Shown: positions 21,107 to 39,634 of the stretch, piece after piece
Position numbering within the stretch: position 1 is the stretch's first letter
Layout of the letters: every line of letters starts with the position of its first letter
Assembly: GCA_049515615.1 (NCBI GenBank)
Contig: JBEKTX010000002.1
Coordinates: 1 to 42,181, forward strand
Length of the DNA stretch: 42,181 bases
Direction: 5' to 3'
Origin: Spirochaetia bacterium
GTDB taxonomy: Bacteria; Spirochaetota; Spirochaetia; SZUA-6; Fen-1364
The notes under the pieces: generated by a model
Databases searched by the model: none
What the model was told of the DNA's origin: nothing
What the model saw: only the letters and a program-made list of their open reading frames with translations
Translations under genes and position numbers: made by a program

Positions 21107-21180
<74 letters not shown>

Positions 21181-21444: not shown

Positions 21445-22674
21445 CTATTTCCCGCCAATGCTGGAGTCCAGAATGCTGATCAGGTCCTGCCAGGGAATGG
21501 CCACGATGCCCTGGCCGAGACTGACCCTTCTCGGCGCGCGGCATACAACATAGCCGGCTTTAGCTGTAGGGTACTCATCCAGGAAGAGCCGCAGGTGACG
21601 TGCGTCAGATGCGCTGGGAGCCGTGGTCCACTTCACCTCGATCGGAGTGTAGTGACCTTCCTGGTCGGAGATCCAGTCGATCTCCGGGCCATCCGGATCG
21701 CGCCAGAAGCGTATGCGCGTTGAGGGCGCCGCCGCGCGTGACCAACGTAACAACTCCAGTCCCACCCATTGCTCGAAGAGCTGCCCCCACCGCGCAGGCA
21801 ACACCCGCCGGCCTTCCCGGGCAGCCACGCGCCGAACGCCCATGTCGAACAGCAGGTACTTGTCAGAGCGGGTGAGCTTCTTTCGTGTCGTGCTTGCCGT
21901 GAGCGGCTCGATCCTCTCAGCGATGAGGCAATCTTCGAGTACCTGGTAGTAGGCCGCGATCGTCGTGTGGGCGACGCCGACGTCCCCGGCGAGCCCGCGA
22001 AGGTTGACGATGCTTCCTGCCTCCGCGGCGGCCAGCTCGAGGAACCGGGCGAAAGCGCCCAGGCTTCGGACCGCCGCCTCTGCCCGTACCTCCTCCTCGA
22101 GGTACGTCGTGACGTACGCGGCAAGATCGGCCTCGCGGTCCACGGCGTCCTGCACCGCGGTGATGCCCGGCAGCGAGCCGTCGGTCAACGCGTCCTCGAG
22201 ACGCCGCGGGACCCGCTCGCGCAGCGAAAGCGGATCGAGGCGGAAGACCAGCGTGCGCCCGGGGAGCAGGTTCGCGGATGTTCCGCGCCTCAGCTTGCGC
22301 GCGCTGGATCCCGTCAGGATGAAGCGGGCGCGGCCGCGGTCCACAAGGTCCTGCACCTCGTCCAGCAGGCCGGGCACCTTCTGGACCTCGTCCAACACGA
22401 CGAGCGGAGCTGCCGCCCCTCCCGCCTTCAACGCCTCGACCTCCCCGCGGAGGAGCCCTGGCGATCTCTCGTAACGAAGCCGGACGTCGGGCAGGGAGAG
22501 CGAAACACGCATCGCACATGGTATGCGGTCGACCAGCGTGGTCTTCCCGGTCTGCCTTGCTCCAAACAGGAAAAGGGATTTGCCCCGCGCGAGTGCCTGC
22601 CGCAGGGGGTCCTCAAGGGCGCGAGGGATGTAGTCCATGCACTCCATTTTCGGCGGAATTGGAGTGTTTGTCAA
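21445..22674 (-). CDS. AAA+ ATPase with C-terminal DUF4143-type domain
   Basis: YIPR...LFLFGARQTGKTTLV Walker A, LVVLDEVQ Walker B, and a C-terminal region typical of AAA_14/DUF4143 proteins (...EIDWI....YTPIEVKW). The start may instead be ATG 22647 or 22638. Confidence 0.85.
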   Translation of the reverse strand: MTNTPIPPKMECMDYIPRALEDPLRQALARGKSLFLFGARQTGKTTLVDRIPCAMRVSLSLPDVRLRYERSPGLLRGEVEALKAGGAAAPLVVLDEVQKVPGLLDEVQDLVDRGRARFILTGSSARKLRRGTSANLLPGRTLVFRLDPLSLRERVPRRLEDALTDGSLPGITAVQDAVDREADLAAYVTTYLEEEVRAEAAVRSLGAFARFLELAAAEAGSIVNLRGLAGDVGVAHTTIAAYYQVLEDCLIAERIEPLTASTTRKKLTRSDKYLLFDMGVRRVAAREGRRVLPARWGQLFEQWVGLELLRWSRAAAPSTRIRFWRDPDGPEIDWISDQEGHYTPIEVKWTTAPSASDARHLRLFLDEYPTAKAGYVVCRAPRRVSLGQGIVAIPWQDLISILDSSIGGK

Positions 22675-22723
22675 CCGGGTTCCGTGGGTTTGGCTACGGC
22701 GGCAGTGAGGCAGCGAATACTGT

Positions 22724-24066
22724 TTGGCCGTCTATCCATGCGTGGCAGGCCAATTCGCTCTGCCCTTGGATGCGACGGCCCCGGGCACTTACCAACCGCG
22801 GGGTACAAGCTCGCTGCAGAGGCTCTTTCGCGTTCATCTTCCCGAGCTCCTCGCACGATACGACGCCGAGTTCGCCGCACGCTTGGGCAAGTACCGCCAG
22901 CAGCGCATCGCGAAGGCCCTGGAGCGCTTTCTGGACTGCGGGGACTATTCCATGGGCGTGGCCAGGATCAAGTGCACCAACCCGCAGTCCAAGAGCGAGT
23001 ACTTCCGCCCGTTCAGCTGCAAGGTCTTCCATCTCTGTCCTTCATGCTCGCAGAAGCGCACGCTGCTCTTCGGCGAGTACATGAACGAGCGGCTGCTGCT
23101 GCGCCTGCCCCACCGCCAGATCGTCTTCACTTTCCCCAAGGTCCTGCGCCTCTTCTTCCGCCATGACCACGAGCTCTTCGGTGTGGTCAGCAGACTCGCC
23201 TACCGCATGATGCAGGACTTCTACAGCACGGCCGCCGGCAGGAAGGTCCAGGGGGCCGCCGTCATTGCCTACGCCTCGGCGGGAGACTTCGTGCGATTCA
23301 ATCCCCACCTGCACGGCATCTTCCTCGAAGGCGGCTTCGATCGCAAAGGGCGATTCGTGCACGTGCCCTCGGTGGACCTGCAACGGCTGGCCCAGTACTA
23401 CCGCGCCTCCATGGTTACCTTCTTCCTCAAGCGCTCGCTCATCAACGAGCGCTTGGCCAGGAGCATGCTGAGCTGGACCCACAGCGGCTTCAGCCTGGAC
23501 ATGTCGGTGAAGATACCCGCCTCCTCCTCCCGAACCCGTGAGGCCCTGGCCCAGTACGTCGCCCGCTCCCCGGTCTCCCTGAGCAAGATGCTGGAGGAAG
23601 AACATGAGGGAAGTGTCCTGTACCGCTCGGAGTACAATCCCTACTTCAAGACCAACGCCCGCCTGTTCCCCGCCCGGGAGCTCCTCGTCCAACTCCTGCA
23701 GCACCTGCCCGATGCTCGGACCCACCTGGTGCGCCGCTACGGGTTGTACTCCTCCCCTTCCCGCGGCACATGGATTGAAAAGCCCTGACTGGTGCGCCTG
23801 GCCCCCGAGGGATGGCTGGAGCAGCACCCGGAGCAGCCTCCACCGCATGTGCGAGCCGTCCTCCAGGAGAGTGCCCAGCCGTCCGTCTCCACTCGGGAAT
23901 CCCGTTCCGCCTGGGCACGTCTGCTGGCCAAAGCCTACGAAGTGGACGCCTTGCGCTGTAGCCGCTGCGGCTCCCCGAAGAAGGTGCTGGCCTTCATTAC
24001 CAATCCCCAATAGTGCCGCAGGATCTTTCTGCACCTGATCAAGACCGGCCTTGCCCCTCCCGGCAT
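22724..24066 (+). mobile_element. IS91-family (HUH/Y2 rolling-circle) transposase gene, inactivated by two in-frame stops
   Basis: Zn-binding region CGDYSMGVARIKCTNP...FRPFSCKVFHLCPSCSQKR, HUH-like FNPHLHGIF, Tyr motif VRRYGLYSS, and C-terminal LLAKAYEVDALRCSRCGSPKKVLAFI...RRIFLHL. The same frame is kept throughout but is interrupted by TGA 23786-23788 and TAG 24011-24013. Confidence 0.75.
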
Positions 24067-24069
24067 AGA

Positions 24070-24564
24070 GGCATCTTGGCGCTGGTGGTCAGCATCATCA
24101 AAGGCGAAACCAGCATCCAAGAGGCCGCACGGGCGCATGGGTTGCCTGTCGCGGACCTCGAGGACTGGAAGGAACGGTTCTTCCTTGGCGCAGATAATGC
24201 GTTGCGAGCTCGGCCGAAGGATGATGAGGCCCTGCGCGAGGAGCAGGCCAAGAAGTTGAAGCAGAATATTGGTGACCTGGGACTGATCTTCCAGAGCAGA
24301 CAGTTTCGCGCAGCCTGCCGCGACTATCGACTCACGCAGGAGTTCATCACGCCGTACACCCCCGAACAGAACGGTATCATCGAGAGATTCTTCCGTAGCC
24401 TGAAAGATGAGTGTGTCTGGCAGCACAGCTTTCACAGTTTCGCTGAAGCCAAGGCGGCCATCCGTCAGTGGATCGAGTGGTACAATGTCGGTCGGCCGCA
24501 TCAGTCGCTGGGATACAAAATCCCTCGCGAGTACAGGACCCAATTACAGCAGTCGGTGGCTTGA
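24070..24564 (+). mobile_element. remnant of an rve-type (IS3/IS481-like) transposase with an internal deletion
   Basis: An OrfA-like HTH and coiled-coil region (IKGETSIQEAARAHGLPVADLEDWKERF...KKLKQNIGDL) is joined directly to the extreme C-terminus of an integrase-core domain (FITPYTPEQNGIIERFFRSLKDEC...WYNVGRPHQSLGY). The two catalytic Asp regions are missing. Confidence 0.7.
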
Positions 24565-24694
24565 AAGATTGGGAGCACTACAAGGTCGCGGCCCGCACCA
24601 GCGCGCCTGCGCGCACCAACCAGCACCTTCTCGTTCAACATTAATTCCCTCTATTCGAATTTTCTTTACTTGACCTGACTGACTAATTCTTCTT

Positions 24695-25690
24695 CTACGC
24701 TTTCGCTGCAACTACGGTTTTCTTGCCGATATTCTTTATAATCTTCTCATTTAAAACTATGGCCAGAACAAAAATAACGCCTTTCAAAATACTCTGCCAG
24801 AATGTTAATATATTCAACATATTCAGGCCATTTCCCAGACATGCGACAACCAGGGCGCCAAAAAAAGTACCGATAACGGAACCTTTACCGCCTGAAAGGC
24901 TTGTGCCCCCCAAAATGATTGCGAGAATTACGTCAAATTCAAAACCAACCGCACCTCTCGGATCACCGGCGCTTAATCTTGATGCGGACATGACGCCCGC
25001 AAACCCGGCAAGCCCTCCAATAATAACAAAGATGGAAAAAATGATCGCTCCCGTATTAATTCCAGAAAAGAAGGCCGCGTTTTTATTTCCGCCTATAGCC
25101 AGCGCATATTTTCCAAGAAGCGTCTTTTTTTCAATGAACACAAAGATAATCAGCGCAATGATTATAAATACAACAAATATCGGTAATCCAAAGAAATATC
25201 TGCTTGCTAAATAGCCTATTTCCGGGGGCATATTGTCGCGTATAGTTGCTCCATTAGCAAATATCAGGGCAATTCCTCTGGAAATATACATCATACATAA
25301 CGTAGCGATAAAAGGGGGGAAATTAAATTTCGTAACCATTGTTCCATTTATAATACCTATGATGATTCCAACACCAACCGCAATAATTCCTGCCGGAATT
25401 AAAGCCATCCCGTTTTTGATCATGAAAGCGTAGACACAACCTGTAAAAGCGACGACGCTTCCCGTAGACAGGTCAAAATTCCCCGTCATCATAAGAATTG
25501 TTGCTGCAGAAGCGACAATAATAATCATCGCTGTTTGTTTCAACACATAAAAATAATTATCAATTTGAAAGAAACTATCATATGCGGTTATGATAAAAAA
25601 AATGTTTATTAACAGGAAAAATGTAACAATAATAGATATTGGATTTCTATATATTTTTGAAAAATCTATTTTCCTATTCATATTATTCAC
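24695..25690 (-). CDS. CUT2-type sugar ABC transporter permease (RbsC-like), low-GC
   Basis: Polytopic hydrophobic protein with the RbsC/branched-chain permease pattern (GNFDLSTGSV, ATLCMMYISRG, GGTSLSGGKGSV). AT-rich codon usage. Confidence 0.9.
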   Translation of the reverse strand: MNNMNRKIDFSKIYRNPISIIVTFFLLINIFFIITAYDSFFQIDNYFYVLKQTAMIIIVASAATILMMTGNFDLSTGSVVAFTGCVYAFMIKNGMALIPAGIIAVGVGIIIGIINGTMVTKFNFPPFIATLCMMYISRGIALIFANGATIRDNMPPEIGYLASRYFFGLPIFVVFIIIALIIFVFIEKKTLLGKYALAIGGNKNAAFFSGINTGAIIFSIFVIIGGLAGFAGVMSASRLSAGDPRGAVGFEFDVILAIILGGTSLSGGKGSVIGTFFGALVVACLGNGLNMLNILTFWQSILKGVIFVLAIVLNEKIIKNIGKKTVVAAKA

Positions 25691-27207
25691 TCACCCTCTG
25701 CAATAATTTTTATAATCTGGTCGTTATCAATATTTTTTCCGTTCTTAACAATGGCAGATACTCTCCCATTATTCATAAATACGATTCTGTCGCATAAATG
25801 AAGAATTTCCGGTAGTTCCGATGAAAATACGATAACGCCTTTCCCTTGATTCGCAAGATTTCTTGTTATATCGTGAATTTCAAGTTTTGCTCCGACATCT
25901 ATGCCTCTGGTCGGTTCATCCATTAGAAGCACATCGCTTTCCCTGTTCAGACACTTGGATATAACAACCTTCTGCTGATTTCCTCCGCTTAAAAACGCGG
26001 CTTTCTGCTCCCTGTCTCTGGCCGCAATAGAAAGCATCTTGATGTAGTCATCCGCAATTTTGTTTTCTTTTGGCCTGCTAATGATACCATTTTTAAGAAT
26101 CGACTTGATTTTCATCATTGGAATGTTATCTTTAATAGATAGTTTCCCAAAAATCCCATCTTCTCTTCTTTCCTCGGGGATCATCGCAATGCCGTTTTTC
26201 AAAGCATCCCTTACTCTTTTATATTTTGCTATCTTTCCTTTAATAAATATATCCCCAGAATAGACATCAATTCCAAAAAGAACACGCGCCACTTCGCTTT
26301 TTCCCGCTCCCATCAATCCGTAAAATCCCAGAATTTCACCCTTGAAAAGATCAAAACTTACATTCTTTAATAGATCAGTATTTAAGTTTCTAACCTCTAG
26401 AAATTTTTCTGAATAATCAGTCTTACTTGGTATGTAGGATTCAATAACGACCCTTCCAAGCATCATTTTAACCAGTTCCAAACAAGCATCGGATGTATCA
26501 CCTTTGCATTCCTTATTGATTTCTTGAACAGTTTTAGTTGCGATGATTTTCCCGTCTCTTAGCACAGTCACAAAATCGCCTATTTCAAATACTTCGCTTA
26601 ATTTATGAGATATGTAAATAACCGTCATCCCGTTTTCTTTTAATTTCTTAACAACTTCAAATATTTTACTGGTTTCTTCCTCGCTTAATGAAGCTGTGGG
26701 CTCATCCATTACCAGTACCTTGCAGTCAATTGAAACCGCCTTGACAATTTCAATAATCTGTTTTTGCGCGGTGCTCAGCTCTCCTACCATCATATTAAGC
26801 TTAACTGTCTTATCGAGTTCTTTTAAGATCGAAAGCATTTTATCAAGGCTATCATCCTTCTGGATCATGCCAAATTTATGCTTCTCCCTGCCAAGTGTGA
26901 GATTTTCTTCGACAGTCAGGTCATTCACCACATTTAATTCCTGGTATATGGCGACAATACCATGATTTTTCGCGTCTTTAACGCTTTTTGGATCAAATGG
27001 TTTATCGTTAAGAATTATATCGCCCTTGGTTTTATTAACAACTCCCGTTAATATTTTAATAAATGTCGATTTACCCGAACCATTTTCACCTATAATACAA
27101 TGTATAGTATTTCTCTTTATATCAAAAACAATATTATCAAGGGCATGAACCCCTGGATACAGTTTATCTATTCCCTTAATACTTAATATAAAATCATTAT
27201 CCATCAT
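25687..27207 (-). CDS. sugar ABC transporter ATP-binding protein with duplicated NBDs (RbsA/MglA-like), low-GC
   Basis: Walker A GENGSGKST, signature LSTAQKQ / LSGGNQQK, Walker B LVMDEPT / LLMDEPT, giving two nucleotide-binding domains. 4-nt overlaps with both permease genes. Confidence 0.95.
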   Translation of the reverse strand: MMDNDFILSIKGIDKLYPGVHALDNIVFDIKRNTIHCIIGENGSGKSTFIKILTGVVNKTKGDIILNDKPFDPKSVKDAKNHGIVAIYQELNVVNDLTVEENLTLGREKHKFGMIQKDDSLDKMLSILKELDKTVKLNMMVGELSTAQKQIIEIVKAVSIDCKVLVMDEPTASLSEEETSKIFEVVKKLKENGMTVIYISHKLSEVFEIGDFVTVLRDGKIIATKTVQEINKECKGDTSDACLELVKMMLGRVVIESYIPSKTDYSEKFLEVRNLNTDLLKNVSFDLFKGEILGFYGLMGAGKSEVARVLFGIDVYSGDIFIKGKIAKYKRVRDALKNGIAMIPEERREDGIFGKLSIKDNIPMMKIKSILKNGIISRPKENKIADDYIKMLSIAARDREQKAAFLSGGNQQKVVISKCLNRESDVLLMDEPTRGIDVGAKLEIHDITRNLANQGKGVIVFSSELPEILHLCDRIVFMNNGRVSAIVKNGKNIDNDQIIKIIAEGE

Positions 27208-28175
27208 GAACCTCCCGGGTACTTGCGCTTTCTCAACATCTGGTCCGCAAAAACGGCGATTATCAGAAGCGCTCCCTTTGTTACTTCCTGATAAAAATAT
27301 GGTACGTTTAGCAGATTTAATCCATTCGCGACCAGGCCAACAATAAATGCTCCAAGTATCATTCCAAATGTAGAACCTTCACCACCAAGCATACTGGTGC
27401 CGCCAAGAAATATTGCCAGAAGCACATCAAATTCCATCCCGGTACCAATATTCGGATATGCCGATCCTACGCGGGATACCTGAATAACACCGCATAATCC
27501 GGCAAGCAAGCCTACAATCATGTATATTATGATTAAAACACTTGGAACATTTATCCCTGAAAGTTTTGAAGCGCTTTTATTACAGCCGATAGAATAACTA
27601 TATCTTCCAAGAACCGTTTTCTTCTCAATGAATATGAAAATTGCAACTACTATTATCATAAAAATGATAATGATTGGAATAACACCGAAAAGGTTTGTTC
27701 TTCCGAAATCGCTGAAATCCGGCGGAAGCCCCGCCGATATGTTCGCTCCGCCGTCCCATCTGGCAATAAGATAGGCAAAACCTCTCGCCGCATACATGGA
27801 ACCCATTGTAGCGATAAAGGGATTTACATTCAGGACCGCAACCATGATTCCGTTTGAAGCTCCCCATAGAATACCCAAAATGCAGCAAAACAGGATTGAC
27901 CATTCAATCGGTAGCACATTTTTTGTCATATAAGCGTGCATGATCGCGCAGAAAGCGAATACGCTTCCAACCGACAGGTCAAAATTTCCTGTAATCATAA
28001 GAAGATTAGCTGCCGAAGCGACAATAATCAGCGGAGCTATTTGAAGCAGTATATTGACAAAATTATCAATATTGAAAAATTTCGATGATAAAATTGACAT
28101 TACCAGGGTTATCACAAGTATCACACTGACAAGTACTGTTTTCTGCTGATCGAATCGTTCTAAAATTTTAAACAT
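27204..28175 (-). CDS. CUT2-type sugar ABC transporter permease (RbsC-like), low-GC
   Basis: GNFDLSVGSV, ATMGSMYAARG and GGTSMLGGEGS motifs parallel the other permease. Start at ATG 28175 (MFKILERF). The track extension to 28247 runs up to the edge of the low-GC block and is not permease-like. Confidence 0.9.
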   Translation of the reverse strand: MFKILERFDQQKTVLVSVILVITLVMSILSSKFFNIDNFVNILLQIAPLIIVASAANLLMITGNFDLSVGSVFAFCAIMHAYMTKNVLPIEWSILFCCILGILWGASNGIMVAVLNVNPFIATMGSMYAARGFAYLIARWDGGANISAGLPPDFSDFGRTNLFGVIPIIIIFMIIVVAIFIFIEKKTVLGRYSYSIGCNKSASKLSGINVPSVLIIIYMIVGLLAGLCGVIQVSRVGSAYPNIGTGMEFDVLLAIFLGGTSMLGGEGSTFGMILGAFIVGLVANGLNLLNVPYFYQEVTKGALLIIAVFADQMLRKRKYPGGS

Positions 28176-28319
28176 CACAAACCGTCCTGTTATATTATAA
28201 AATGACCAACGGCGGGCAGGAGTCGGGCGGAGGGGCAATATATACAAAGCATAGCTTTTAAGGATTTTTTGCAGCTGCCGGACGCCTGTCTGGTGACGGT
28301 GTACACTTGCGGGACGACT

Positions 28320-28382
28320 CTACGCGATGGCTGTGGCGAGCACGCTGGGAATCAGCGCCGCCATGAGGATCTTCTTCACCAT
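28320..28382 (-). pseudogene. 20-codon high-GC relic encoding only a signal-peptide-like sequence (MVKKILMAALIPSVLATAIA)
   Basis: AGGAGGAGAGAG RBS (reverse complement of 28385-28396) is followed by ATG 28382, a typical secretory or solute-binding-protein leader, then TAG. It sits exactly between the kinase gene and the low-GC block boundary. Confidence 0.4.
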
Positions 28383-28428
28383 CTCTCTCCTCCTGTTAAT
28401 TCTCTCTCCGGCCTGACAGGCCGGTTGT

Positions 28429-29970
28429 CTACTTCTGCAAATCGGCCAGCGCGGCGAACACGCCGCTTCGGTCGAGGCCCTCGTAGCCCCGGCAGTACAC
28501 GTCATAAAGCCGCGCGTAGGTCTGCACGTTCTCTGGGATAGGCTCGAAGCGCTCGTCGAGCCGGACCATCGCGTCCGCTCCTTCCTCGATGGAGGAGAAG
28601 ACCGCGGCGCCCACGCCCCCCAGGATGGCGGCGCCCAGCACGGTGGCGTCCGTGACCTTCAGCGTTGTCACGGGCACGCCGTACACATCAGCCTGGATCT
28701 GGTTCCACACGCGGGACTTCGTGGGACCGCCCAGGAGGCGGGCTTCCGTCACCCGGAGTCCCGATCGTGCCATGGAGCTCACCATGTCCTTCATGTCCAG
28801 CGTGATGCCTTCCATGAACGCCCGGGCGATGTCGAACCGGGTGTGCGAGAACGTGAGCCCCACAATCGTTCCCCGGGCCAGGGGATTGTACCGGGGCGTT
28901 CCAGCGGCCGCGAAATAGGGGAGTACAAGCAGTCCGCGGGATCCGGCGGGTACCGCGGAGACACGGTCGTTCATGAAGTCGTAATAGTTGCGGCCGCCGG
29001 TCTCGGCATCGCGGGCTTCCTGCGCGCCGAACCGCTCCTTGAACCAGCGGTAAACGCTGGCCGCCGCCGCCTGGTATCCCTCGAGAAGCCAATGCCCTTT
29101 GATCGGATGGGCCGTCACGATCATCCGTCCCTCCGCGTCGCGGATGGGGGCGTCCAGGAACGCAGCCACCGCCCCCGCCGTCCCCATGGAAACCGAAATT
29201 AGCCCCCCGCGAACGATTCCGGCGCCGACCGCGCCCGCGCTCTGGTCCCCGGCGCCGACGCTCACCTGCGTTCCGGCCCGCAGGCCGATGCGCGAGGCAG
29301 CCGACGACGAGATCCGGGCCACGGGCGTTCCCGATGGCCGCGGAACCGGCAACAGCGAGGCGTCGATGCCGAATAGTTGCAGCAAGCGTGCGTTCCAGCA
29401 TCCCGCCGCGGAGTCAAAAAAGCCGAAATAGCCCGCGTCGTTCCAGTCCACCACGTAATCGTCCGCGCCGAGCGCCCGCACGAAATAGTCGTGCATCTGT
29501 ACGACCCGGCGCGTCTTGTTCCAGACTTCCGGCTCGTTTCGGCGGACCCACATCATCTTGGACAGGAGCCACGTCGTGCTGTTGGGATATCCCGTGAGCC
29601 GGTAGAGCTCCCTCTCATCAATCCGGGCGGCGATTTCCTTCACTTCCGCGGTGGTACGGTTGTCCTGCCAGGAAATCATGGGCCGCACCTGGTGGTCATT
29701 CGCGTCCAGGAAGATCCCGCAACAGCGCTGCGCGGACAGTGACAGGGACACGATGGCCTTCGGCGGGACGTTGCTGGCCCGCACGGCTTCCGCCATGGCC
29801 TGCATGGTGGATTCCACCAGGAGATCCGCGTCCTGCTCGACCCAGCCCGGACGGGGATACGTGCAGGGATACTCCCGGTAGCCCGCGCCAAGCGCGGTTC
29901 CCGCGAGATCGAAGACCATGCCCTTGGCGCCGGAGGTGCCGATGTCGATTCCCGCCAGATAGGTCTCCAT
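28429..29970 (-). CDS. FGGY-family carbohydrate kinase (xylulokinase/glycerol kinase-like), intact copy B
   Basis: N-terminal LAGIDIGTSGAKGMVFD, YPRPGWVEQD and a C-terminal GGPTKSRVWNQIQADV-type FGGY signature. High-GC. Confidence 0.9.
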   Translation of the reverse strand: METYLAGIDIGTSGAKGMVFDLAGTALGAGYREYPCTYPRPGWVEQDADLLVESTMQAMAEAVRASNVPPKAIVSLSLSAQRCCGIFLDANDHQVRPMISWQDNRTTAEVKEIAARIDERELYRLTGYPNSTTWLLSKMMWVRRNEPEVWNKTRRVVQMHDYFVRALGADDYVVDWNDAGYFGFFDSAAGCWNARLLQLFGIDASLLPVPRPSGTPVARISSSAASRIGLRAGTQVSVGAGDQSAGAVGAGIVRGGLISVSMGTAGAVAAFLDAPIRDAEGRMIVTAHPIKGHWLLEGYQAAAASVYRWFKERFGAQEARDAETGGRNYYDFMNDRVSAVPAGSRGLLVLPYFAAAGTPRYNPLARGTIVGLTFSHTRFDIARAFMEGITLDMKDMVSSMARSGLRVTEARLLGGPTKSRVWNQIQADVYGVPVTTLKVTDATVLGAAILGGVGAAVFSSIEEGADAMVRLDERFEPIPENVQTYARLYDVYCRGYEGLDRSGVFAALADLQK

Positions 29971-29978
29971 GGCCGTCG

Positions 29979-30146
29979 CTACAACGAGTCCTTGTACATC
30001 TGGATGACGTCCGCGCGGCCGAACGGCTTCAGGCTGCAGTTCAGGCAGTCGCCCATGGTCTTGAAGGTGGAATCCGTCATGGCCTCGATCATCTCCTCCT
30101 TGACGCCCAGGTCATGCATGCGAACCCGGCAGCCGAACCTTTCCAC
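29979..30146 (-). pseudogene. C-terminal fragment (about 55 codons) of an iron-containing alcohol dehydrogenase, copy B
   Basis: ERFGCRVRMHDLGVKEEMIEAMTDSTFKTMGDCLNCSLKPFGRADVIQMYKDSL aligns with the C-terminus of the intact ADH at 32234-33415 (EKFGCRVRMSDLGVKASMIEAMADSAFKTMAGCLNCSLKSLSRADVIALYKASL). Confidence 0.8.
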
Positions 30147-30189
30147 AAAACAAAGAGAAAGGATAAAGTATTTCATTTATCCTTTCTCT
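30142..30189 (-). terminator. rho-independent terminator of the low-GC solute-binding-protein gene
   Basis: A perfect 14-bp inverted repeat, AGAGAAAGGATAAA (30154-30167) / TTTATCCTTTCTCT (30176-30189), with an 8-nt loop. On the minus strand it is followed by TTTGTTTTGTGG. Confidence 0.7.
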
Positions 30190-30215
30190 AAATTAATCTT
30201 TTCTTGCTATATGGA

Positions 30216-31244
30216 TTATTTCTTTTTGCTTTTAGCTACATCGGCTACAAGTTTCCCTTTATAACCATAATTATCCATCAGGAATACCTGGGCGTCTTCG
30301 ATAGAAGTCTGCCAGTAATCAATTTCTTTAACGAAACACTGAATAATCTGGAATTTGTTCATATCAATTTTGCCTTGAATCATTCCCATCATACAATCCA
30401 TTTCAGCACGAGCGACATCGCGTACGGCACCATTAGAAATTTTGAATGAACAGTCTGGATCATATATTTTGATCAGCGCGGAGGAGTTTCCGTCAACACC
30501 GGCTATGATTTCAGTCAGCGGCTTGCCATTGTCCATTTTTCCTCTTCCTTTCTGTTCGCAGGCCGCAAGAGCTCCAAGAGCCATTTCATCATTTCCGCCG
30601 AAGAAAATATTTATTTCCGGATGAGCCTGGAGAATATCAAGGGTTACTTTCATTGATTCTTCGGTAGAACCCTGACCGTTAAGAACAGTAACAAGTTCCG
30701 CTTTCGGATCGACAGCTTTAACGCCTTCAAAGAAAGGCACGAATCTCAAAACCTCTCCCTGTTCCCATGCGCCGAAATTAAGAATAGCGACTTTGCAGGG
30801 TTTATTCGGGAAAGCTTTTAGCCATTGCTGTGCAGCTATTTTACCTTCGGCATAGGATGCCGGCGTTTCCATCGGCTGAACATGAGGTGCATTCTTTGAG
30901 TCAGGGTAAATCAAAGTGGTTACAATAGGGATTCCTTTGGCATGCGCAAGTTCGATAGCCTTTGCAGTTAAAGCCGTTTCAGGGCTGTGAATCGAAATAG
31001 CGTCAACTTTCTGCGCAATGAGATTTTCAACGGCGGCAAGCATTTTTTCTCCTGTTCCTCCGCCGTCAAGAATGATTACCTTGACTCCGTACATTTTCGG
31101 TCCATAACTTTGAAGTTCCCTGGCAATTGACTGATGGAACTGATGTTCCATGGTATAAACGACATGCCCTACCGTGATTGGCTTGGCGTAACCTAGCGGT
31201 AACACCAGAGCAACCGCTAACACAGCTAACATTAGCTTCTTCAT
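30216..31244 (-). CDS. periplasmic sugar-binding protein of a CUT2 ABC transporter (RbsB-like), low-GC
   Basis: Signal peptide MKKLMLAVLAVALVLPLGYA. Peripla_BP-type pattern (DAISIHSPE, IPIVTTLIYPD, FFGGNDEMALGALAA). GAGGAGGAAG RBS precedes ATG 31244. The track start at 31259 is a TTG inside that RBS. Confidence 0.9.
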   Translation of the reverse strand: MKKLMLAVLAVALVLPLGYAKPITVGHVVYTMEHQFHQSIARELQSYGPKMYGVKVIILDGGGTGEKMLAAVENLIAQKVDAISIHSPETALTAKAIELAHAKGIPIVTTLIYPDSKNAPHVQPMETPASYAEGKIAAQQWLKAFPNKPCKVAILNFGAWEQGEVLRFVPFFEGVKAVDPKAELVTVLNGQGSTEESMKVTLDILQAHPEINIFFGGNDEMALGALAACEQKGRGKMDNGKPLTEIIAGVDGNSSALIKIYDPDCSFKISNGAVRDVARAEMDCMMGMIQGKIDMNKFQIIQCFVKEIDYWQTSIEDAQVFLMDNYGYKGKLVADVAKSKKK

Positions 31245-31328
31245 CTTCTTCCTCCTCAATTAAATTTGAATCGGCTCAAACCGCCGATTTTCAACAAAAT
31301 TAGTTACCATGATGGCGTAGCGCGCCAT

Positions 31329-31837
31329 GGTGCTGTCGTTGCCCGTTCCCGGTTTCTCGTGCCATTTCGTGTTCGTGATCACCCACCAGGAGGTCGTCTC
31401 CGAGCCGGTTCCCGCGGTCGTAGTGACGCAGATGATGGGGAACGCCGGCTTCGTTCCTCCAACGTGGCGTGGGGTCCTCCGGCGAGGTAGTCCAGGATGG
31501 TTCCGCCTCCCTGGGCAGCCAGGAACGCCACGGCCTTGGCGGAGTCCATGGAGCTTCCCCCGTCGAGCCCTAACGCGAAGTCGCATTTGCTCGTGAGGAA
31601 CACCCTGGTTTGGCGGTCGATGTCCACGTCCTTGGGGTTGGGGTCCACGTTATCGGAGACGACGACGTCAACGCTGCCCTTCTTGAGCAGTTCTACTGCC
31701 CTGTCCAGGATACCGGTCTGCTTGGCAGCGAGTAGCATCGCTCTTTTGCCGGTGGTCGGTGCAATCTCCTGGAGCCGCCTGAGCTCACCATTTCCGAAGA
31801 AGACTCTAGTAGGTACGCTGAAATCGAATGCCTTCAT
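31329..31837 (-). pseudogene. N-terminal part (about 170 codons) of the iron-containing alcohol dehydrogenase, copy B, with a frameshift
   Basis: MKAFDFSVPTRVFFG...GGSSMDSAKAVAFLAAQGGGTILDYLAGGPHA (frame of track ORF 31379-31864) continues as GTKPAFPIICVTTTAGTGSETTSWWVITNTKWHEKPGTGNDST in the frame of ORF 31260-31586. A 1-nt indel lies near 31452-31465. Homology to the intact copy stops at about 31310-31329. Confidence 0.8.
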
Positions 31838-32009
31838 GCCCCGCTCCTCCGGGCTATGCAACAAATATTAGTCTTGTTCTAAATAACAAACTACTATGGC
31901 GTAGTCTCTCATATTCAGGACTATATGTCAAATGAATTCTTGAGATTTTTATGTTGATCATGAGATTAGCGGTTGGTGTAAAGTGCTGTTCGCAATTTTG
32001 GGTTGAAAG

Positions 32010-32222
32010 GAGGCGCTTCACCCCGCTCTGCACCGCGGCCCGGGCCATGGCGTCCATGGTGGCCTCCACCAGGTGGTCCGCGTCCTGCTCGACCCATCCC
32101 GGCCGGGGGTAGGTGCAGGGGTACTCCTGGTAGGCGCTGGCCAGGGGGTTGCCCGCCAGGTCGAACACCATGGCCTTGGCCCCGGAGGTGCCGATGTCCA
32201 CGCCGGCCAGGTAGGTCGCCAC
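32010..32222 (-). pseudogene. N-terminal fragment (about 69 codons) of an FGGY kinase, copy A
   Basis: MATYLAGVDIGTSGAKAMVFDLAGNPLASAYQEYPCTYPRPGWVEQDADHLVEATMDAMARA parallels the N-terminus of the intact kinase at 28429-29970. The rest of the track ORF (to 31854) is AT-rich non-homologous sequence. Confidence 0.8.
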
Positions 32223-32233
32223 CGCCGCCCCTC

Positions 32234-33415
32234 CTACAGCGATGCCTTGTACAGGGCGATCACGTCGGCGCGGGACAGGCTCTTCAGGCTGCAGTTCAGG
32301 CAGCCGGCCATGGTCTTGAAAGCTGAGTCGGCCATGGCCTCGATCATGGAGGCCTTGACCCCCAGGTCGCTCATCCTCACCCGGCAGCCGAACTTCTCCA
32401 GCGTCTTCTCCAGCGCCTCCGGCGAGCGGCGGGCCAGCTCCTGGTCGGACTCACCGGCCCTGGCGTGGCCGAGGATGCGCGTGACCTCGGCGTAGCGGAC
32501 GACGTCCGCGTCCCAGGTGTGGCGCATGTAGGCCGGACCCACGGCGGCCATGGTCAGCCCGTGCGGGGCGTCCGTCTGCCCGCCGATGGAGTGCCCCAGG
32601 GCGTGGATGCCCACGGTCGAGGACTTGCCCTCGCCGATGGTGATGCCGGCGATGGTGTTGGCCCAGGCCATCTGGCTGCGGGCCTCCAGGTCCTGGCCAT
32701 TGTCGAGGGCCCGACCCAGGTGCTGGACCACCAGGCGCATGGCCTCGCGCGAGAACAGGTCGGTGAAGGGGGTGGCCACGTTGGAGAGGAAGGACTCCAT
32801 GGCGTGGAACAGCACGTCGATGCCGGTGTTGCGCGTGACCTCCCGGGGCACCGAGAGCATCAGCTCGGGGTCCACGATCGAGACCGCGGGGCGAGTGCTG
32901 TCGTTGCCGGTGCCCGGCTTCTCATGGTGTTTCGTGTTGGTGATGACCCACCAGGGCGTGGTCTCCGAGCCCGTGCCGGCCGTGGTGGTGATGCACAGGA
33001 TGGGGAAAGCCGGCTTGGTGCCGGCGAGGTCGGCGTGCGGGCCGCCAGCCAGGTAGTCGAGGATCGTGCCGCCGCCCTGGGCCGCCAGGAAGGCCACGGC
33101 CTTGGCCGAGTCCATGGAGCTGCCCCCGCCCAGGCCCACCGCGAAATCGCATTTCTCCCGGAGGAACACCTGGGTCTGCCGGTCGATGTCCACGTCGCGC
33201 GGGTTGGGCGCCACGTCGTCGGACACCACCACCTGCACTCCGCCCTCTCGCAGCAGGCCTTCCACCCGCTGCAGGGTCCCGGTCTGCCGCATCGTGTCCT
33301 TGGCAGCCAGGAGCATGGCCTTCCTGCCCAGCTCGGCGGCGGTCGCCTTGGCCTGCTTCACCTCGCCGGCGCCGAAAAACACGCGGGTGGGGACGCTGAA
33401 GTCGAATACTTTCAT
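32234..33415 (-). CDS. iron-containing (group III) alcohol dehydrogenase, intact copy A
   Basis: GGGSSMDSAKAVA, TTAGTGSETT and metal-ligand region HALGHSIGG. GAGG RBS lies 6 nt upstream of ATG 33415. Confidence 0.9.
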   Translation of the reverse strand: MKVFDFSVPTRVFFGAGEVKQAKATAAELGRKAMLLAAKDTMRQTGTLQRVEGLLREGGVQVVVSDDVAPNPRDVDIDRQTQVFLREKCDFAVGLGGGSSMDSAKAVAFLAAQGGGTILDYLAGGPHADLAGTKPAFPILCITTTAGTGSETTPWWVITNTKHHEKPGTGNDSTRPAVSIVDPELMLSVPREVTRNTGIDVLFHAMESFLSNVATPFTDLFSREAMRLVVQHLGRALDNGQDLEARSQMAWANTIAGITIGEGKSSTVGIHALGHSIGGQTDAPHGLTMAAVGPAYMRHTWDADVVRYAEVTRILGHARAGESDQELARRSPEALEKTLEKFGCRVRMSDLGVKASMIEAMADSAFKTMAGCLNCSLKSLSRADVIALYKASL

Positions 33416-33572
33416 GGTGCCTCGCTTGGTAGGAATTTAGAAATTAGGCATCTATGCCCTATCATTTTAAAAAGTAGCAGCATGCGAGGCAGATTATGGC
33501 AGAATTGAATCCAAATGTCAATAAAAATTTTAATAATTTTTACTGGTAGATTTTCATTATATCGAGAACCGC

Positions 33573-34532
33573 TTACAGCAGCGCCCGGGCCAGCCCTTCG
33601 TCGGCCACCAGGGTGCCGATCAATCCACCAAGCAGGGCCGCCCGCACCGCCTCCGCCTTCTCGGGCCCCGCGGCCACCCCAACGCGCCTGGGGATGCGCA
33701 GGAGCGCCTCCGCCCCGATCCCGACCAGCCGCGCGTTCCAGGGACACGGGAAAGGCCGGCCCTCGGCGTCGATGTGCAATCCGCACACCGTGCCCACGGC
33801 CCCCGCGGCAAGAAGGCGCCTGGATTCCGCCGCGCTCAGGAAGCCGGTCCGCACCAGGGAGCTGGAGCGCGGGCGGTTGGTGCCGATTCCGAACAGGGCC
33901 AGATCGGCCCGGGCGCCCCTCTTCAGGGTCTCCGCGATGCCGGGCTCGCGCACCAGCTGCTCGCGCAGCTCGCGGCTGGCCACCGAGATCGGCGCCTGGA
34001 TGACCCGGTACCGGCCGTGCAGCTTTTCCGCCAGGCCCTGGGCCAGGCCGAAGGCGTCGATGGCCGGGTCCTCGGCGCCCAGCCCGCCGTGCAGCTGCAC
34101 CACCTCCACGCCGCGCAGCTCCAGGGGACGCAGGTGGCGCACCACTTGGAAGAGGGTCGTGCCCCAGCTCAGGCCGATGCGCAGGCCGGCGGCGGCCATG
34201 CCCGACAGTTCCATTTCCAGCCAGGCGGCGGCCGCCTGCCCCACCCGGCGCTTGGCCGCCTCCGCGTCCGCTTCCGCCGGGGCCACCACGGCCGCCGCCA
34301 GGCGGTAGCGCTCCTTCAGCTCGGCCTGCAGGCGCAGGATCGCCGAAGGCGAGTCGACGATGCGGATCTCGACGATCCCCTGTTCGCGGCAGGCCTTGAG
34401 CGCGAGCGAGACCGAGGAGCGCGAGATGCCGAAGCGGCGGGCGATGTCCGCCTGCGACAGCCCCTGCTCGTGGTAGAGCCGGGCCACCTCGATCAGGAAG
34501 TCCCGCCGGCCGGCGTCGCGCGCGGAAGCCAT
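33573..34532 (-). CDS. SorC/DeoR(B. subtilis)-family sugar-binding transcriptional regulator
   Basis: The N-terminal HTH (LIEVARLYHEQGLSQADIARRFGISRSSVSLALKACREQGIV.I) is followed by a SorC-type sugar-phosphate binding domain (GLSWGTT, LFGIG). The start abuts the E2 stop. Confidence 0.85.
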   Translation of the reverse strand: MASARDAGRRDFLIEVARLYHEQGLSQADIARRFGISRSSVSLALKACREQGIVEIRIVDSPSAILRLQAELKERYRLAAAVVAPAEADAEAAKRRVGQAAAAWLEMELSGMAAAGLRIGLSWGTTLFQVVRHLRPLELRGVEVVQLHGGLGAEDPAIDAFGLAQGLAEKLHGRYRVIQAPISVASRELREQLVREPGIAETLKRGARADLALFGIGTNRPRSSSLVRTGFLSAAESRRLLAAGAVGTVCGLHIDAEGRPFPCPWNARLVGIGAEALLRIPRRVGVAAGPEKAEAVRAALLGGLIGTLVADEGLARALL

Positions 34533-35732
34533 CTACATCAGCAGGGCGAGCGGATTTTCCAGCAGCCGGCGAACGGACTGCAGGAACAGGGCGGCTGGGG
34601 CGCCGTCGACGAGCCGGTGGTCGTGGGTCAGGCAGAGCTCCAGCACCTGGCGGCCCACGACCTGGCGGCGCTCGTCGAAGCGCAGGACCTCCTCCACGGC
34701 CCCCACGCCCAGGATCGCGCACTCGGGCACGTTGAGCAGCGGGGTGAAGGCCGTGACGCCGTACATGCCCAGGCTGCTCACGGTGAAGGTGCCGCCGCTC
34801 ACCTGTTCGCGCGTCAGGCGCCGCTCGCGGGCCAGGGCTGCCAGCTCCCGGGTGGCCTCCGCGATCTGCCGCAGGCTGAGGGTGTCGGCCCGATGCAGCA
34901 CCGGCACCACCAGCCCGTCCTCCAGGGCCACGGCCACGCCGACGTCTACCTCCTCGTGCTGCACCACCCGCCCGTCTTCGAAGGAGGAGTTTAGCAGAGG
35001 GTGCTCGCGCAGCACGGCGGCGACCGCCTTGACCACCAGGTCGGTGACGCTGATCTTGACCTCCCCGCTTGCGTTGAGCGTTCGGCGGGTCTCGGCCAGC
35101 TCGGTCACGTCCGCCCGTGTGATGAGCGTCGGGGAAGGCACCTGCCAGCTGCGGACCATCTTGTCGGCGATCGTCCTGCGCAGGCCGGTCAGCGGCTGGC
35201 CTTCGCCCGGGGCCGCAGGACCGGCGTCCGGGCGCACCCCTGCCGTCTCCAGATCGCGCAGGCGCACGGCGCCGAAGGGACCGGTGCCGCGTACGCCGGC
35301 CAGCGTGGCCGGCGGCAAGCCCAACTCGGCGGCCCGGCGCTTGGCGGCCGGGGTGGCCGGCACCTTGCCGGGCGGCGGCGCCGCAGCGGGCGCCAGCTCC
35401 GCGCGCGCGGCCTCGCCCACCCCTGCGGCCGCGGGCGCCGGCGCGGCTGGAGCAACGGCCGCTGGCGTGGGCGCCCCTTCGCTCAAGACCTCTCCCGGCT
35501 GCCCGATCCAGGCGATGGTCTGCGTGACCGGAACCACCTCTCCTTCCTTGCGGAGAATGGCGAGCAGTCGGCCGTCAGCCTCGGATTCGACCTCCATGGA
35601 GGTCTTGTCCGTTTCGATCTCCAGCAGGATCTCGCCCTTGGCCACCGGCTCCCCTTCCTTCTTGAGCCAGCGCAGGATCGTGCCTTCCTCCATGGCCATG
35701 CCCGTTTTGGGCATGATGACCGGGTACGCCAT
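34533..35732 (-). CDS. dihydrolipoamide acyltransferase (E2) of an acetoin/2-oxoacid dehydrogenase complex
   Basis: Lipoyl domain (EIETDKTSMEVES), Ala/Pro linker, E3/E1-binding segment (ATPAAKRRAAELG) and catalytic DHRLVDG motif. Confidence 0.9.
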   Translation of the reverse strand: MAYPVIMPKTGMAMEEGTILRWLKKEGEPVAKGEILLEIETDKTSMEVESEADGRLLAILRKEGEVVPVTQTIAWIGQPGEVLSEGAPTPAAVAPAAPAPAAAGVGEAARAELAPAAAPPPGKVPATPAAKRRAAELGLPPATLAGVRGTGPFGAVRLRDLETAGVRPDAGPAAPGEGQPLTGLRRTIADKMVRSWQVPSPTLITRADVTELAETRRTLNASGEVKISVTDLVVKAVAAVLREHPLLNSSFEDGRVVQHEEVDVGVAVALEDGLVVPVLHRADTLSLRQIAEATRELAALARERRLTREQVSGGTFTVSSLGMYGVTAFTPLLNVPECAILGVGAVEEVLRFDERRQVVGRQVLELCLTHDHRLVDGAPAALFLQSVRRLLENPLALLM

Positions 35733-35744
35733 CGCCTGCCTCTC

Positions 35745-36731
35745 CTACTGCAATATCTCGCGCACCGCCGCGGCGATCCGCTCCGGGGTCGGAACCACGT
35801 GGGCCTCCAGGTGGCGGTTGTAGGGCACCGGGGTCTCCATGGCGCCCAGGCGGCGTATGGGAGCGTCAAGGTAGTAGAAGGCCTCGCTGTCCCCCACCGC
35901 CGCGGCGATCTCCCCGCCGAAGCCGCCGAACTGCGGCGCCTCGTGCACCACCAGCACCCTGCCGGTCTTGCGCGCCGAGTCCACCATGGTGGCGGTGTCC
36001 AGGGGGCGCAGGCTGCGGACGTCCACCACCTCCACCTCGATGCCTTCCCCGCACAGCGTGGCAGCCACCTCCAGGCAGCGCGGTACCATGCGGCCATAGG
36101 TGATGATCGAAAGGTCCCGCCCCTCCCGCTTCACATCGGCCGAGCCCAGCGGGATGCTGTACTCTTCTTCCGGCACCGGTCCCTTGGCCCGGTACAGCAG
36201 CTTCTGTTCGATGAACACTACCGGGTTGTCGTCGTGGATGGAGGTCTTCAGCAGGCCCTTGGCGTCGTAGGGGGTGGAGGGGATGACCACCTTCAGCCCG
36301 GGCACGTTGCACACCCAGGCCTCCACGCTCTGGGAGTGCTGGGCCGCCGCGCCGGTCCCCGAACCCCCCGGAGTGCGCAGCACCATGGGCACGCTGGCCT
36401 GTCCGCCGAACTGGTAGCGCGCCTTGGCGGCCTGGTTGGCCAGCTGGTCCATGGCGAGGGTGAGGAAGTCGCTGAACATGATCTCCACGATCGGGCGCAT
36501 TCCGGTGATGGCCGCGCCCACCGCGCATCCTGTTATGGCCGCCTCGCTGATCGGGGTGTCGCGCACCCGCTCCGGGCCGAACTCCTGCAGCATCCCGACC
36601 GAAACGCCGAAAGCTCCCCCGTAGGCGCCAACGTCCTCGCCCAGCAGGAACACCCTGGGGTCCCGGCGCATCTCCTCACTCATCGCCTCGCGGACGGCCT
36701 GGGCATAGGTGATTTCCCGGGCCGCGCTCAT
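35745..36731 (-). CDS. 2-oxoacid/acetoin dehydrogenase E1 beta subunit
   Basis: Transketolase-like pyrimidine-binding and C-terminal domains ([31 protein letters not shown]). 4-nt overlap with the E1 alpha gene. Confidence 0.93.
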
Positions 36732-37696
36732 CCGGCCGTCTCCGCGTACACGTCCTCGACAGCCGACTCCAGCGCCGGCTCCGGGCTGGACTCCGCGAAT
36801 TCCAGGGCTTCCCGGACAACCCGCTCCGCCCCGGCCTCAATGGCCTCCAGCTCCGCGGCCTGGAACAGGCCCTCGACCAACAGCTTCTCCTTCATGCGCT
36901 TGATGGGGCAGCGCTTGCGCCACTCTTCCACTTCCTCCTTGGTCCGATACACGTTGGCGTCGCTCTTGGAGTGGCCCATGATGCGGTAGGTGTTGGTGAC
37001 CAGCAGCATCGGCCCCTGGTTGCGCACGTACTGCCTGGCCTCCCGGGCGGCCGCGTAGACCTGGAAGATGTCGTTGCCGTCGACGGACCTGCCCGGCATG
37101 CCGTAGGAGGAGGCGCGGATGGCGATGTCCGGGATGGCCATGTGCCTTGAAACGTGCATGGACATGCCGTACTGGTTGTTCACGCACACGAACAGGACCG
37201 GCAGCTTCCAGATGGCGGCCAGGTTCAGCGCTTCGTGGAAAGCCCCTTCGTTGGCCGCTCCGTCCCCGAAGAAGTCCGCCACGATGCGGTCGATGCCCTG
37301 CATCCTGGTGCTCAGGGCGGAACCCACGGCGATGGGGATTCCGCCAGCCACGATGCCATTGGCGCCGAGGTTACCTACCGCCAGCTCCGCGATATGCATG
37401 CAGCCGCTCTTGCCCCTGCACACGCCGGTGGCCTTGCCCAGGAACTCGGCCATCATGCGCTTGACGTCCATGCCCTTGCCGATGCTCTGGCCGTGCCCGC
37501 GGTGGGTGGCATAGATCAGGTCCTCGGGCTCCAGGGCGGCGCACACTCCGATGCCCGTGGCCTCCTCGCCGATGCAGAAATGGGCGGTGCCGTGCACCTT
37601 GCCCTGCGTGAACAGCTTCGCGGCGGTCTCCTCGAACTTCCGGGTGATCATCATTTTGGCATACATGTCGGCCAGTTTTTCCTTGCCGATTTCCAA
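36728..37696 (-). CDS. TPP-dependent E1 alpha subunit, AcoA-type (acetoin dehydrogenase-like)
   Basis: [13 protein letters not shown]...GEEATGIG...[36 protein letters not shown] matches the AcoA-type signature as I recall it. The likely start is TTG 37696, 6 nt after AAGGAGG. The track start at 37732 has no RBS. Confidence 0.88.
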
Positions 37697-38655: not shown

Positions 38656-38767
38656 AGCTGCTGCACGCGCTTGGCCCCGTAGGTGCCGCGGGGCTAGCTC
38701 GTTACGAACACGTTCACCCCAGCTGCCATCACGGCCGCCTTCGGCGAGCGCATCGGAGGCCCTGGAG

Positions 38768-39628: not shown

Positions 39629-39634
39629 TATCAG

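Follow-up and report, generated by a model that had tools for sequence, protein, structure and literature searches.

A transporter locus of a Spirochaetia bacterium (contig JBEKTX010000002.1, assembly GCA_049515615.1) was examined in a stretch of 42,181 nucleotides (nt), hereafter the window. The genes in question encode the parts of an ABC importer, i.e. two permeases (permA and permB), a fused ATPase, and a substrate-binding protein (SBP). They are AT-rich and lie within a GC-rich sugar/polyol catabolic operon. The features of the locus are collected in Table 1. According to the original prediction, which was made from the letters of the window alone, the transporter had either been acquired very recently from a distant low-GC donor and then rearranged, or been joined to its neighbors by chimeric assembly. 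Related contigs are referred to below by handles (L001, L002, etc.).

Composition and borders of the AT-rich blocks

In a 300-nt composition profile, the window averaged 64-66% G+C with two depressions. Block 1 (24639 to ca. 28265) carries the permease and ATPase genes, and block 2 (30146-31307) carries the SBP gene; both are on the minus strand, as are the host genes around them. By exact count, G+C was 38.1% over positions 24635-28265 and 42.4% over positions 30146-31310, compared to 66.1% in the kinase gene between the blocks and 64-66% in the flanks. Two low-GC blocks within a high-GC locus were therefore borne out, but the contrast first given for them (30-32% versus 72-83%) was overstated. 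Individual 60-nt lines ranged from 17% to 58% G+C in block 1 (mean, 38%) and from 58% to 78% in the kinase gene. The four AT-rich genes had a G+C fraction at third codon positions (GC3) of 0.35-0.42, compared to 0.84-0.95 for their neighbors.

Comparison with relatives placed three of the four borders to within a few nt (24638/24639, 30145/30146, and ca. 31300-31307). The fourth (28176-28319) is a mixture of AT-rich and GC-rich pieces with no sharp step, so the claim of transitions within a few nt holds for the other three only. The permB leader in this zone is homologous to the donor leader (see below). A native kinase gene does separate the blocks, as had been stated, but the interval also holds the 3' remnant of an alcohol dehydrogenase (ADH) paralogue, ADH2, and a 5' remnant of a native SBP gene.

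All four transporter genes were found by Pfam to be intact, which upheld the prediction that they are full-length. The proposed 4-nt coupling overlaps were firm in one case (ATGA at 27204-27207, between permB and the ATPase start); the other, at 25687-25690 between the ATPase and permA, exists only if permA starts at the GTG at 25690. Gene callers on sister contigs picked the ATG at 25681, leaving a 5-nt gap to the ATPase. The two permeases are 41-43% identical to each other. G+C and GC3 were 38% and 0.37 for permA and 36% and 0.35 for the ATPase. The SBP coding sequence (CDS; 30216-31244, 342 aa) also matched PF00532 (3.6e-10). It has, as claimed, its own ribosome-binding site (RBS; GAGGAGG) and its own terminator, a hairpin with a 14-bp stem and a T-run at 30154-30189 (fold z = -4.25). 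The whole cassette, ca. 1.16 kb, takes the place of 471 bp (codons 175-338) of ADH2.

The ratio of nonsynonymous to synonymous divergence (dN/dS) was 0.04-0.27 for permB, the ATPase, and permA (ATPase, 0.04-0.16; permA, 0.08-0.27) and 0.05-0.45 for the SBP gene; the values for permB between the window and L011 and for permA between the window and L009 were excluded as artefacts (offset high-scoring segment pair or cross-hit). These ratios show that the foreign genes are kept under purifying selection.

Table 1. Features of the transporter locus and its surroundings in the window
Feature	Position	Strand	Basis or remark
rve-type (IS3-like) insertion sequence (IS) remnant	24013-24582	+	Pfam rve_3, rve_2; end TGTAGTGCTCCC (minus strand) abuts permease remnant
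Native high-GC permease 3' remnant, 55 nt (LNEKVLVGARRR...)	24584-24638	-	Homologous to native permA 3' ends in L004, L088, L011
Foreign AT-rich spacer after permA stop	24639-24694	-	Ends in RBS-like AGAGGGA + ATG
Foreign permease 2 (permA), 328-331 aa	24695-25690	-	Pfam BPD_transp_2 (PF02653), 1.6e-35
Foreign fused double ABC ATPase, 506 aa	25687-27207	-	Pfam ABC_tran (PF00005), two domains
Foreign permease 1 (permB), 323 aa, ATG at 28175	27204-28175	-	Pfam BPD_transp_2 (PF02653), 9.4e-46
Patchwork junction zone	28176-28319	-	AT-rich permB leader, GC patch 28204-28237, AT patch, GC piece of unknown origin
Native SBP gene 5' remnant: RBS, ATG, 20 signal-peptide codons, stop	28320-28382	-	Aligns with L097, L014, L016
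Native intercistronic hairpin CCGGCCTGTCAGGCCGG after kinase stop	28408-28424	-	In L097, L014, L016, L012; -13 kcal/mol, z = -3.45
Native FGGY kinase (FGGY2), xylulokinase-like	28429-29970	-	Pfam FGGY_N and FGGY_C; GC 66%, GC3 0.84
Fe-ADH paralogue ADH2, 3' remnant, codons 339-393	29982-30145	-	tblastn, 73% to ADH1
Foreign SBP cassette: leader, RBS, CDS, terminator	30146-31307	-	Pfam Peripla_BP_4 (PF13407), 2.4e-28
ADH2 pseudogene 5' fragment, codons 1-174	31329-31837	-	tblastn, two segment pairs in different frames; Pfam Fe-ADH fragment
Native ADH2 promoter/operator-like region: TTGACA and palindrome TTGTTATTTAGAACAA	31835-31931	-	Sequence; putative function
Second FGGY kinase paralogue fragment, codons 3-87	31980-32216	-	tblastn, 65% to FGGY2
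Intact native Fe-dependent alcohol dehydrogenase, ADH1	32234-33415	-	Pfam Fe-ADH and ADH_Fe_C; GC3 0.95
Second native permease 3' remnant	39568-39622	+	Directly upstream of IclR gene 39702-40592

Displacement of native genes and source of the replacement

The window is chromosomal; it carries trpE, trpGD, trpCF, trpB, trpA, radC, and an enolase gene whose product is 97% identical to that of 'Spirochaetia bacterium' metagenome-assembled genomes (MAGs) at NCBI. Relatives L014, L016, L017, and L097 have orthologues of native composition at the same position, in an operon of the order ADH-FGGY kinase-SBP-permB-ATPase-permA with a GC3 of 0.83-0.95. The corresponding operon of L018 is uniformly low-GC.

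Traces of the displaced genes were found at both borders of block 1. After the kinase stop, the native hairpin, RBS, and SBP codons 1-20 match L097, L014, and L016 base for base, and the SBP remnant at 28320-28382 marks the upstream junction of the displacement. The downstream recombination junction is marked by the permease remnant at 24584-24638, which lies 56 nt beyond the foreign permA stop and is followed by an IS end. The 56-nt spacer has the same layout as the permA-to-ADH spacer of donor-like contigs. These border remnants were detectable only by aligning the junctions with relatives. Elsewhere in the window, tblastn with the native proteins of L017, L097, and L024 gave no native transporter remnants above noise. 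Because truncated ends of native genes (5' for the SBP gene, 3' for a permease gene) flank the foreign block, the native genes were displaced in situ, with AT-rich permB-ATPase-permA physically replacing the native DNA from the SBP gene to the permease gene.

The upstream junction has its longest spacer in the window, L010, and L089; different internal deletions shorten it in L003, L009, and L011/L026. Since these deletions differ between lineages, they point to one ancestral junction that would have decayed independently in each lineage.

Outside the carrier clade, the nearest relatives of all four genes were found side by side on low-GC contigs. L128-L131 are uniformly low-GC (GC 0.35, GC3 0.26-0.29) and carry SBP, permB, ATPase, and permA contiguously, with amino-acid identities to the window proteins of 79%, 77%, 73%, and 74%, respectively. 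Two further low-GC contigs, L132 and L134, were 67-75% identical, and homologues from high-GC Spirochaetia reached only 53-74%. L128 and L132 have, between SBP and permB, a hairpin homologous to the terminator hairpin of the SBP cassette. No plasmid in PLSDB encoded a match of more than 30% amino-acid identity to the SBP. Together with the IS remnants at the points of rearrangement (see below), these relationships agree with the predicted low-GC donor and subsequent rearrangement. Because the enzymes of the donor-like contigs are distant (their FGGY kinase is 47% identical), only the transporter module appears to have been taken.

We regard it as very probable that the locus represents a xenologous displacement in situ within a sugar/polyol catabolic operon of an uncultured high-GC Spirochaetia host, and that the arrangement is real and inherited.

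Entry of the SBP cassette and of the permease-ATPase-permease block in separate events, possibly from different donors, was considered and is very unlikely. In the carrier clade, the blocks adjoin each other only in the rearranged L007, and the locus that holds the SBP cassette in L088 retains just a remnant of a native permease, without the AT-rich permeases. The SBP block is also less AT-rich (44% versus 36-41%); SBP genes, however, are less AT-shifted in every lineage (G+C at second codon positions, GC2, of 0.35-0.37 everywhere). Separate entries are further countered by the near-equal identity of the four genes (73-79%) to one contiguous operon in L128 and by the shared SBP-permB hairpin. 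As a side observation, the SBP cassette has in its leader (ca. 31281-31300, minus strand) the motif TGAAAATCGGC, which recurs in L128 at ca. 1120-1140, between the SBP terminator and permB; the sharing may be coincidental or may be a hint of a circular or tandem intermediate.

Loss of the native transporter was observed in other relatives as well. Deletions in L088 (1856-2354), L012 (3073-3366), and L004 (2303-2600) fuse the kinase or an ADH fragment to the last ca. 90-100 codons of a native permease. Because such fusions occur in several relatives, the native transporter would seem to have been destroyed repeatedly in this group.

Reality of the arrangement

The junctions were recovered independently in other assemblies. 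Exact-protein look-ups retrieved L001 (a 10.1-kb contig from JGI sample 3300038451, 99.99% identical to window positions 26881-37004), L002 (1.3 kb long and from another sample, 3300038426; it crosses the 31.3-kb junction with 100% identity), and L133 (100% identical to 21822-26889, spanning the 24.6-kb junction). All four junctions are reproduced in these three contigs, and the same GC mosaic recurs in L003-L006, L008-L011, L026, L034, L088, and L089 (from ENA, JGI, Logan, and NCBI), i.e. in at least 10 more contigs, at about 85-95% identity (86-95% as measured against the window). L089 is part of CAVTHO010000008.1, an 877-kb contig of the Spirochaetota MAG MFD05942.bin.2.325.

The chimera alternative, in which reads of a low-GC organism were misjoined into a high-GC contig, is refuted by these matches, and we assign it a vanishingly small probability. 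The abrupt GC steps and the metagenomic source had spoken for it, as does a break within the ATPase gene in the assembly of sample 3300038451, where L001 stops at 26881 and L133 begins at 26889. Besides the recurrence of the mosaic across many samples and assemblers, it is contradicted by the equal identity to L003 in high-GC parts (95.2%) and low-GC parts (95.0%), and by the remnants of native genes exactly at the borders.

Age of the transfer and amelioration

In a tree of the kinase genes, the carriers of the mosaic formed a tight clade with at most 7.7% nt divergence (synonymous divergence, dS, up to 0.21), separated by ca. 20% from L012 and L013. In L012, a native permease remnant directly follows the kinase, and there are no AT-rich genes there; the L013 contig ends just past the kinase, with the transporter outside it. 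Three sublineages were distinguished in the clade: A (the window, L003, and L008/L009), B (L010 and L089), and C (L011 with L026, which is 98% identical to L011 across the transporter block).

The GC3 of the foreign genes was 0.35-0.45 in lineage A, 0.43-0.54 in lineage B, and 0.57-0.66 in lineage C and L007, and a permA copy in L022 reached 0.71. Host genes had a GC3 of 0.81-0.93 in all lineages. The earlier statement that there had been essentially no amelioration is thus accurate for the window (0.35-0.42) but not for its sister lineages, in which GC3 reaches 0.6-0.7. Lineage-specific substitutions in permB-ATPase-permA, counted as AT>GC versus GC>AT, numbered 134 versus 20 in L011, 83 versus 13 in L007, 61 versus 46 in L010, and 28 versus 34 in L003.

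The direction of change was also examined at synonymous third positions at which lineage A has A or T and L011 has G or C. At these sites, the low-GC outgroups carried the base of the window 186 times versus 79 times for that of L011, and of 187 sites, 140 in L010 matched the window. Given the polarized substitutions and the agreement of the outgroups and L010 with the window, the AT-rich state is ancestral; lineage C has ameliorated, and the window is near-ancestral. Amino-acid polarization on the stem of the window lineage was balanced, the outgroup siding with the window 14 times and with the others 13 times.

By three-point distances, the kinase branch of the window is the shortest (about 1.4%, versus about 3.7-4%). 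Because this branch is so short, the low amelioration in the window reflects a short, slow branch with little elapsed change, and not a strain-level event. Substitutions on terminal kinase branches were AT-biased in the window and L003 (23 GC>AT versus 2) and balanced in L011 (16 versus 19).

A very recent transfer, as first proposed, was not supported: the displacement junction is common to three sublineages whose kinases diverge by up to 7.7%. That the transfer was strain-level, with relatives having acquired the same genes independently, is highly improbable. The GC3 of the window does lie near that of donor-like genes (0.27-0.5), and dS between lineages in the AT-rich genes is 1-6 times that of the kinase, which could mean separate, diverged donors. 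However, the excess in dS runs in one direction (AT>GC) and is as large as amelioration would be expected to make it, and the transporter and kinase divergences rank the lineages identically. Moreover, a single junction with the native SBP remnant is common to the window, L010, and L089, and L003, L009, L011, and L026 have nested deletion derivatives of it; the foreign 3' spacer recurs in the window, L089, and L007, and the permease remnant behind the spacer recurs as well (window and L011).

The same data bear on decay in place, i.e. drift of the native transporter to low GC, for example by local loss of GC-biased gene conversion or by hypermutation. The canonical operon position of the transporter, its many named homologues from Spirochaetia, the continuous series of ATPase identities from 95% down to 60%, and the AT bias on the terminal branches of the window lineage, present even in the kinase, would all suit this explanation. 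Nevertheless, it is extremely improbable: truncated remnants of the native high-GC SBP and permease genes flank the block, which indicates that native copies were physically replaced; the low-GC contigs are closer than any high-GC homologue; the outgroups and L010 show the AT-rich state to be ancestral in the clade, with changes running AT>GC; and the G+C at first codon positions (GC1) and GC2 are donor-like as well.

An additional proposal, in our view unlikely, is that the same insertion ameliorates at very different rates in sister lineages (GC3 of ca. 0.37 versus 0.6-0.7), the window being AT-biased even in its kinase.

Rearrangements and mobile elements

ADH2 is intact in L089 and L010, and the 3' remnant in the window is continuous with these intact copies; in the window lineage, 471 bp were replaced by the SBP cassette. 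The 5' fragment is frameshifted near codon 130. The cassette was found in four contexts, with the 3' end identical in all (just after the terminator) and the 5' end within ca. 10 nt. In the window, L001-L006, L008, L009, and L088, it is embedded in ADH2; in L089, a duplicate of the ADH2 promoter/operator precedes it and intact ADH2 is downstream; in L011, it is between ADH1 and the kinase; and in L007, it is near the permeases, with no kinase between. The two promoter/operator copies of L089 are at 7860-7960 and 9330-9430, and one is fused directly to the SBP cassette, an arrangement that looks like promoter capture. In the window, the ADH2 promoter/operator-like region probably drives the cassette. 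In L089 and L007, an IS end (TGTAGTGCCCC...) of the same rve-type family as the remnant at 24013-24582 begins right after the terminator T-run. A remote possibility, given the 3' end common to the four contexts, is that the cassette may be mobilized by a hairpin-targeting IS.

Where the contig of a relative continues beyond the transporter (L089, L010, L011, and L007), an IclR gene comes next. In the window, this gene is 15 kb from the transporter and beside an IS91-family transposase gene.

Two IS91-family (Y2/Zn_Tnp_IS91) transposase genes, at 22724-23788 (plus strand) and 38729-39781 (minus strand), bracket the catabolic region in inverted orientation. Neither a composite transposon nor an IS91-IS91 inversion is demonstrated, as the amino-acid identity of the transposases is only 53% and no DNA repeat connects them. 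An integron cassette was rejected for the SBP block: its borders do not fit GTTRRRY, its hairpin precedes a T-run in the manner of an intrinsic terminator and is homologous to the intercistronic hairpin of the donor, and the window yielded no integrase; attC sites were looked for by eye only.

A tRNA-associated genomic island was also considered and discarded. The locus resembles classical islands of this kind in its deviant composition, the nearby IS, a tRNA-Arg gene 3.4 kb away, and its absence from more distant relatives. It differs in that no phage-type integrase was present among the scanned open reading frames and no flanking direct repeats were seen, and in that the foreign DNA, split in two, totals only ca. 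4.8 kb and is situated within a native operon, not beside the tRNA gene.

Neighboring features

The tRNA-Arg(CCT) gene (21107-21180, plus strand), the only Rfam match, directly precedes mobile-element debris that consists of a DUF4143/AAA_14 ATPase gene (21445-22674), the first IS91-family transposase gene, and the rve-type IS remnant. In L010, the homologous tRNA region is ca. 2 kb past the transporter, after IclR and SGL genes. On the other side of the kinase, the decayed tandem paralogues at 31329-32216 (minus strand; a kinase fragment, then interrupted and frameshifted ADH2) suggest that the locus formerly held at least two ADH-kinase pairs. The native hairpin CCGGCCTGTCAGGCCGG is probably an RNA element between cistrons, and it is conserved in the native operons of distant relatives. 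A complete trp operon at 216-6786 (plus strand) has fused trpG-trpD (535 aa) and trpC-trpF (481 aa) genes.

Transporter class, putative substrate, and expression

The four genes are predicted to encode a complete CUT2-type ABC importer. As in other members of this family (TC 3.A.1.2; Rbs, Ara, Xyl, Lsr, and Ytf), the SBP has the Peripla_BP_1/4 fold, the permeases belong to BPD_transp_2, and a single ATPase of ca. 500 aa contains two ABC domains; the presence of two different permease genes is shared with LsrCD and YtfT/YjfF. The locus differs from the named systems in that no specific equivalog (RbsABC, AraFGH, XylFGH, LsrACDB, or YtfQRT-YjfF) reached its curated NCBIfam cut-off, and the substrate is only suggested by gene context. 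The best NCBIfam matches of the ATPase were AraG, XylG, AlsA, and RbsA. Scores versus cut-offs were 52 versus 337 for RbsB, 475 versus 689 for AraG, and 214 versus 398 for RbsC. The adjacent kinase was nearest to xylulokinase (NCBIfam XylB, 341 bits versus a cut-off of 380). The importer presumably takes up a substrate that is processed by the adjacent ADH and kinase; judging from the Fe-ADH, the xylulokinase-like FGGY kinase, and a SorC/DeoR regulator, a polyol or a pentose/pentulose is the best guess.

The strong terminator predicted after the SBP gene argues against a simple single transcription unit, and the description of the locus as one apparent transcription unit is therefore doubtful. 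Between 24400 and 32300, 22 matches to a sigma-70-like promoter were counted, compared to a shuffled expectation of 10.3, and nearly all were inside the AT-rich blocks. An excess is expected of AT-rich DNA; it bears on spurious transcription in a GC-rich host.

Proposed history of the locus

The ancestral operon would have comprised genes for an Fe-ADH, an FGGY kinase, an SBP, a permease, an ATPase, and a second permease, followed by an IclR-type regulator gene. In what we infer to have been a single transfer, a contiguous SBP-permease-ATPase-permease segment would have entered the ancestor of the clade from a low-GC bacterium with a homologous operon and a GC of about 0.35-0.4. The foreign permease-ATPase-permease genes would have replaced the native sequence from codon ca. 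21 of the SBP gene to ca. 18 codons before the end of the second permease gene, and the foreign SBP gene would have survived as the cassette with its own RBS and terminator. Rearrangements putatively associated with IS3-like and IS91-like elements may then have moved the cassette. In the window lineage, it would have replaced the middle of the redundant ADH paralogue, and rearrangements would have parted the operon from its IclR neighbor. The AT-richness would thus be the inherited composition of the donor, barely ameliorated in the window lineage.

Three observations weigh against this history. The foreign SBP gene is not located between the native SBP remnant and foreign permB, as entry in one piece would predict. 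The best outside match is only 73-79% identical in amino-acid sequence, and the direct donor was not sampled. Finally, the terminal branch of the window has 4 AT>GC versus 14 GC>AT substitutions, with no net AT>GC drift; this absence fits a short branch and not simple amelioration.

Relation to known cases and significance

The event is of a known kind, the replacement of genes through horizontal transfer, with IS-associated shuffling and lineage-dependent amelioration afterward; the case is ordinary, if clean, and is well documented at this locus. Mosaic operons that arise through horizontal transfer and in situ displacement by xenologous genes were reportedly described by Omelchenko et al. 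(2003, Genome Biol 4:R55). The present locus is alike in that some genes of an operon were swapped in place for distantly derived functional equivalents, and in that the neighboring genes keep the vertical history of the host. It differs in that both recombination borders are preserved as truncated native remnants, in that the gene of one displaced component, the SBP, later moved within the locus, and in the unusually large contrast (GC3 of 0.37 versus 0.85-0.95).

The amelioration of horizontally acquired DNA is said to have been treated by Lawrence and Ochman (1997, J Mol Evol). In keeping with that scheme, the foreign genes start at the composition of the donor and drift to that of the host, fastest at third positions; GC3 is 0.37, 0.46, 0.60, and 0.71 across lineages, and GC1 and GC2 lag. 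The case here differs in that sister lineages with the same insertion are unequally ameliorated, with almost no amelioration in the window.

For the annotation of metagenomes, the locus illustrates that an abrupt GC step inside an operon need not mean a chimera. For the organism, it means that the transporter module of a catabolic operon can be swapped for a foreign one and kept under selection despite a G+C mismatch of ca. 27 points. The understanding of horizontal transfer is unchanged, and the main value of the locus lies in its comparative amelioration series: the related contigs represent one insertion at different stages of amelioration and could be used to calibrate rates and to test ideas on the evolution of GC content. 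If the unequal rates in sister lineages were to reflect a lineage-specific loss or weakening of a GC-ward force, the locus would be a natural experiment with a bearing on how bacteria keep their GC high; GC-biased gene conversion or selection could be such a force, and it would be missing from a locus that lacks a recombination partner.

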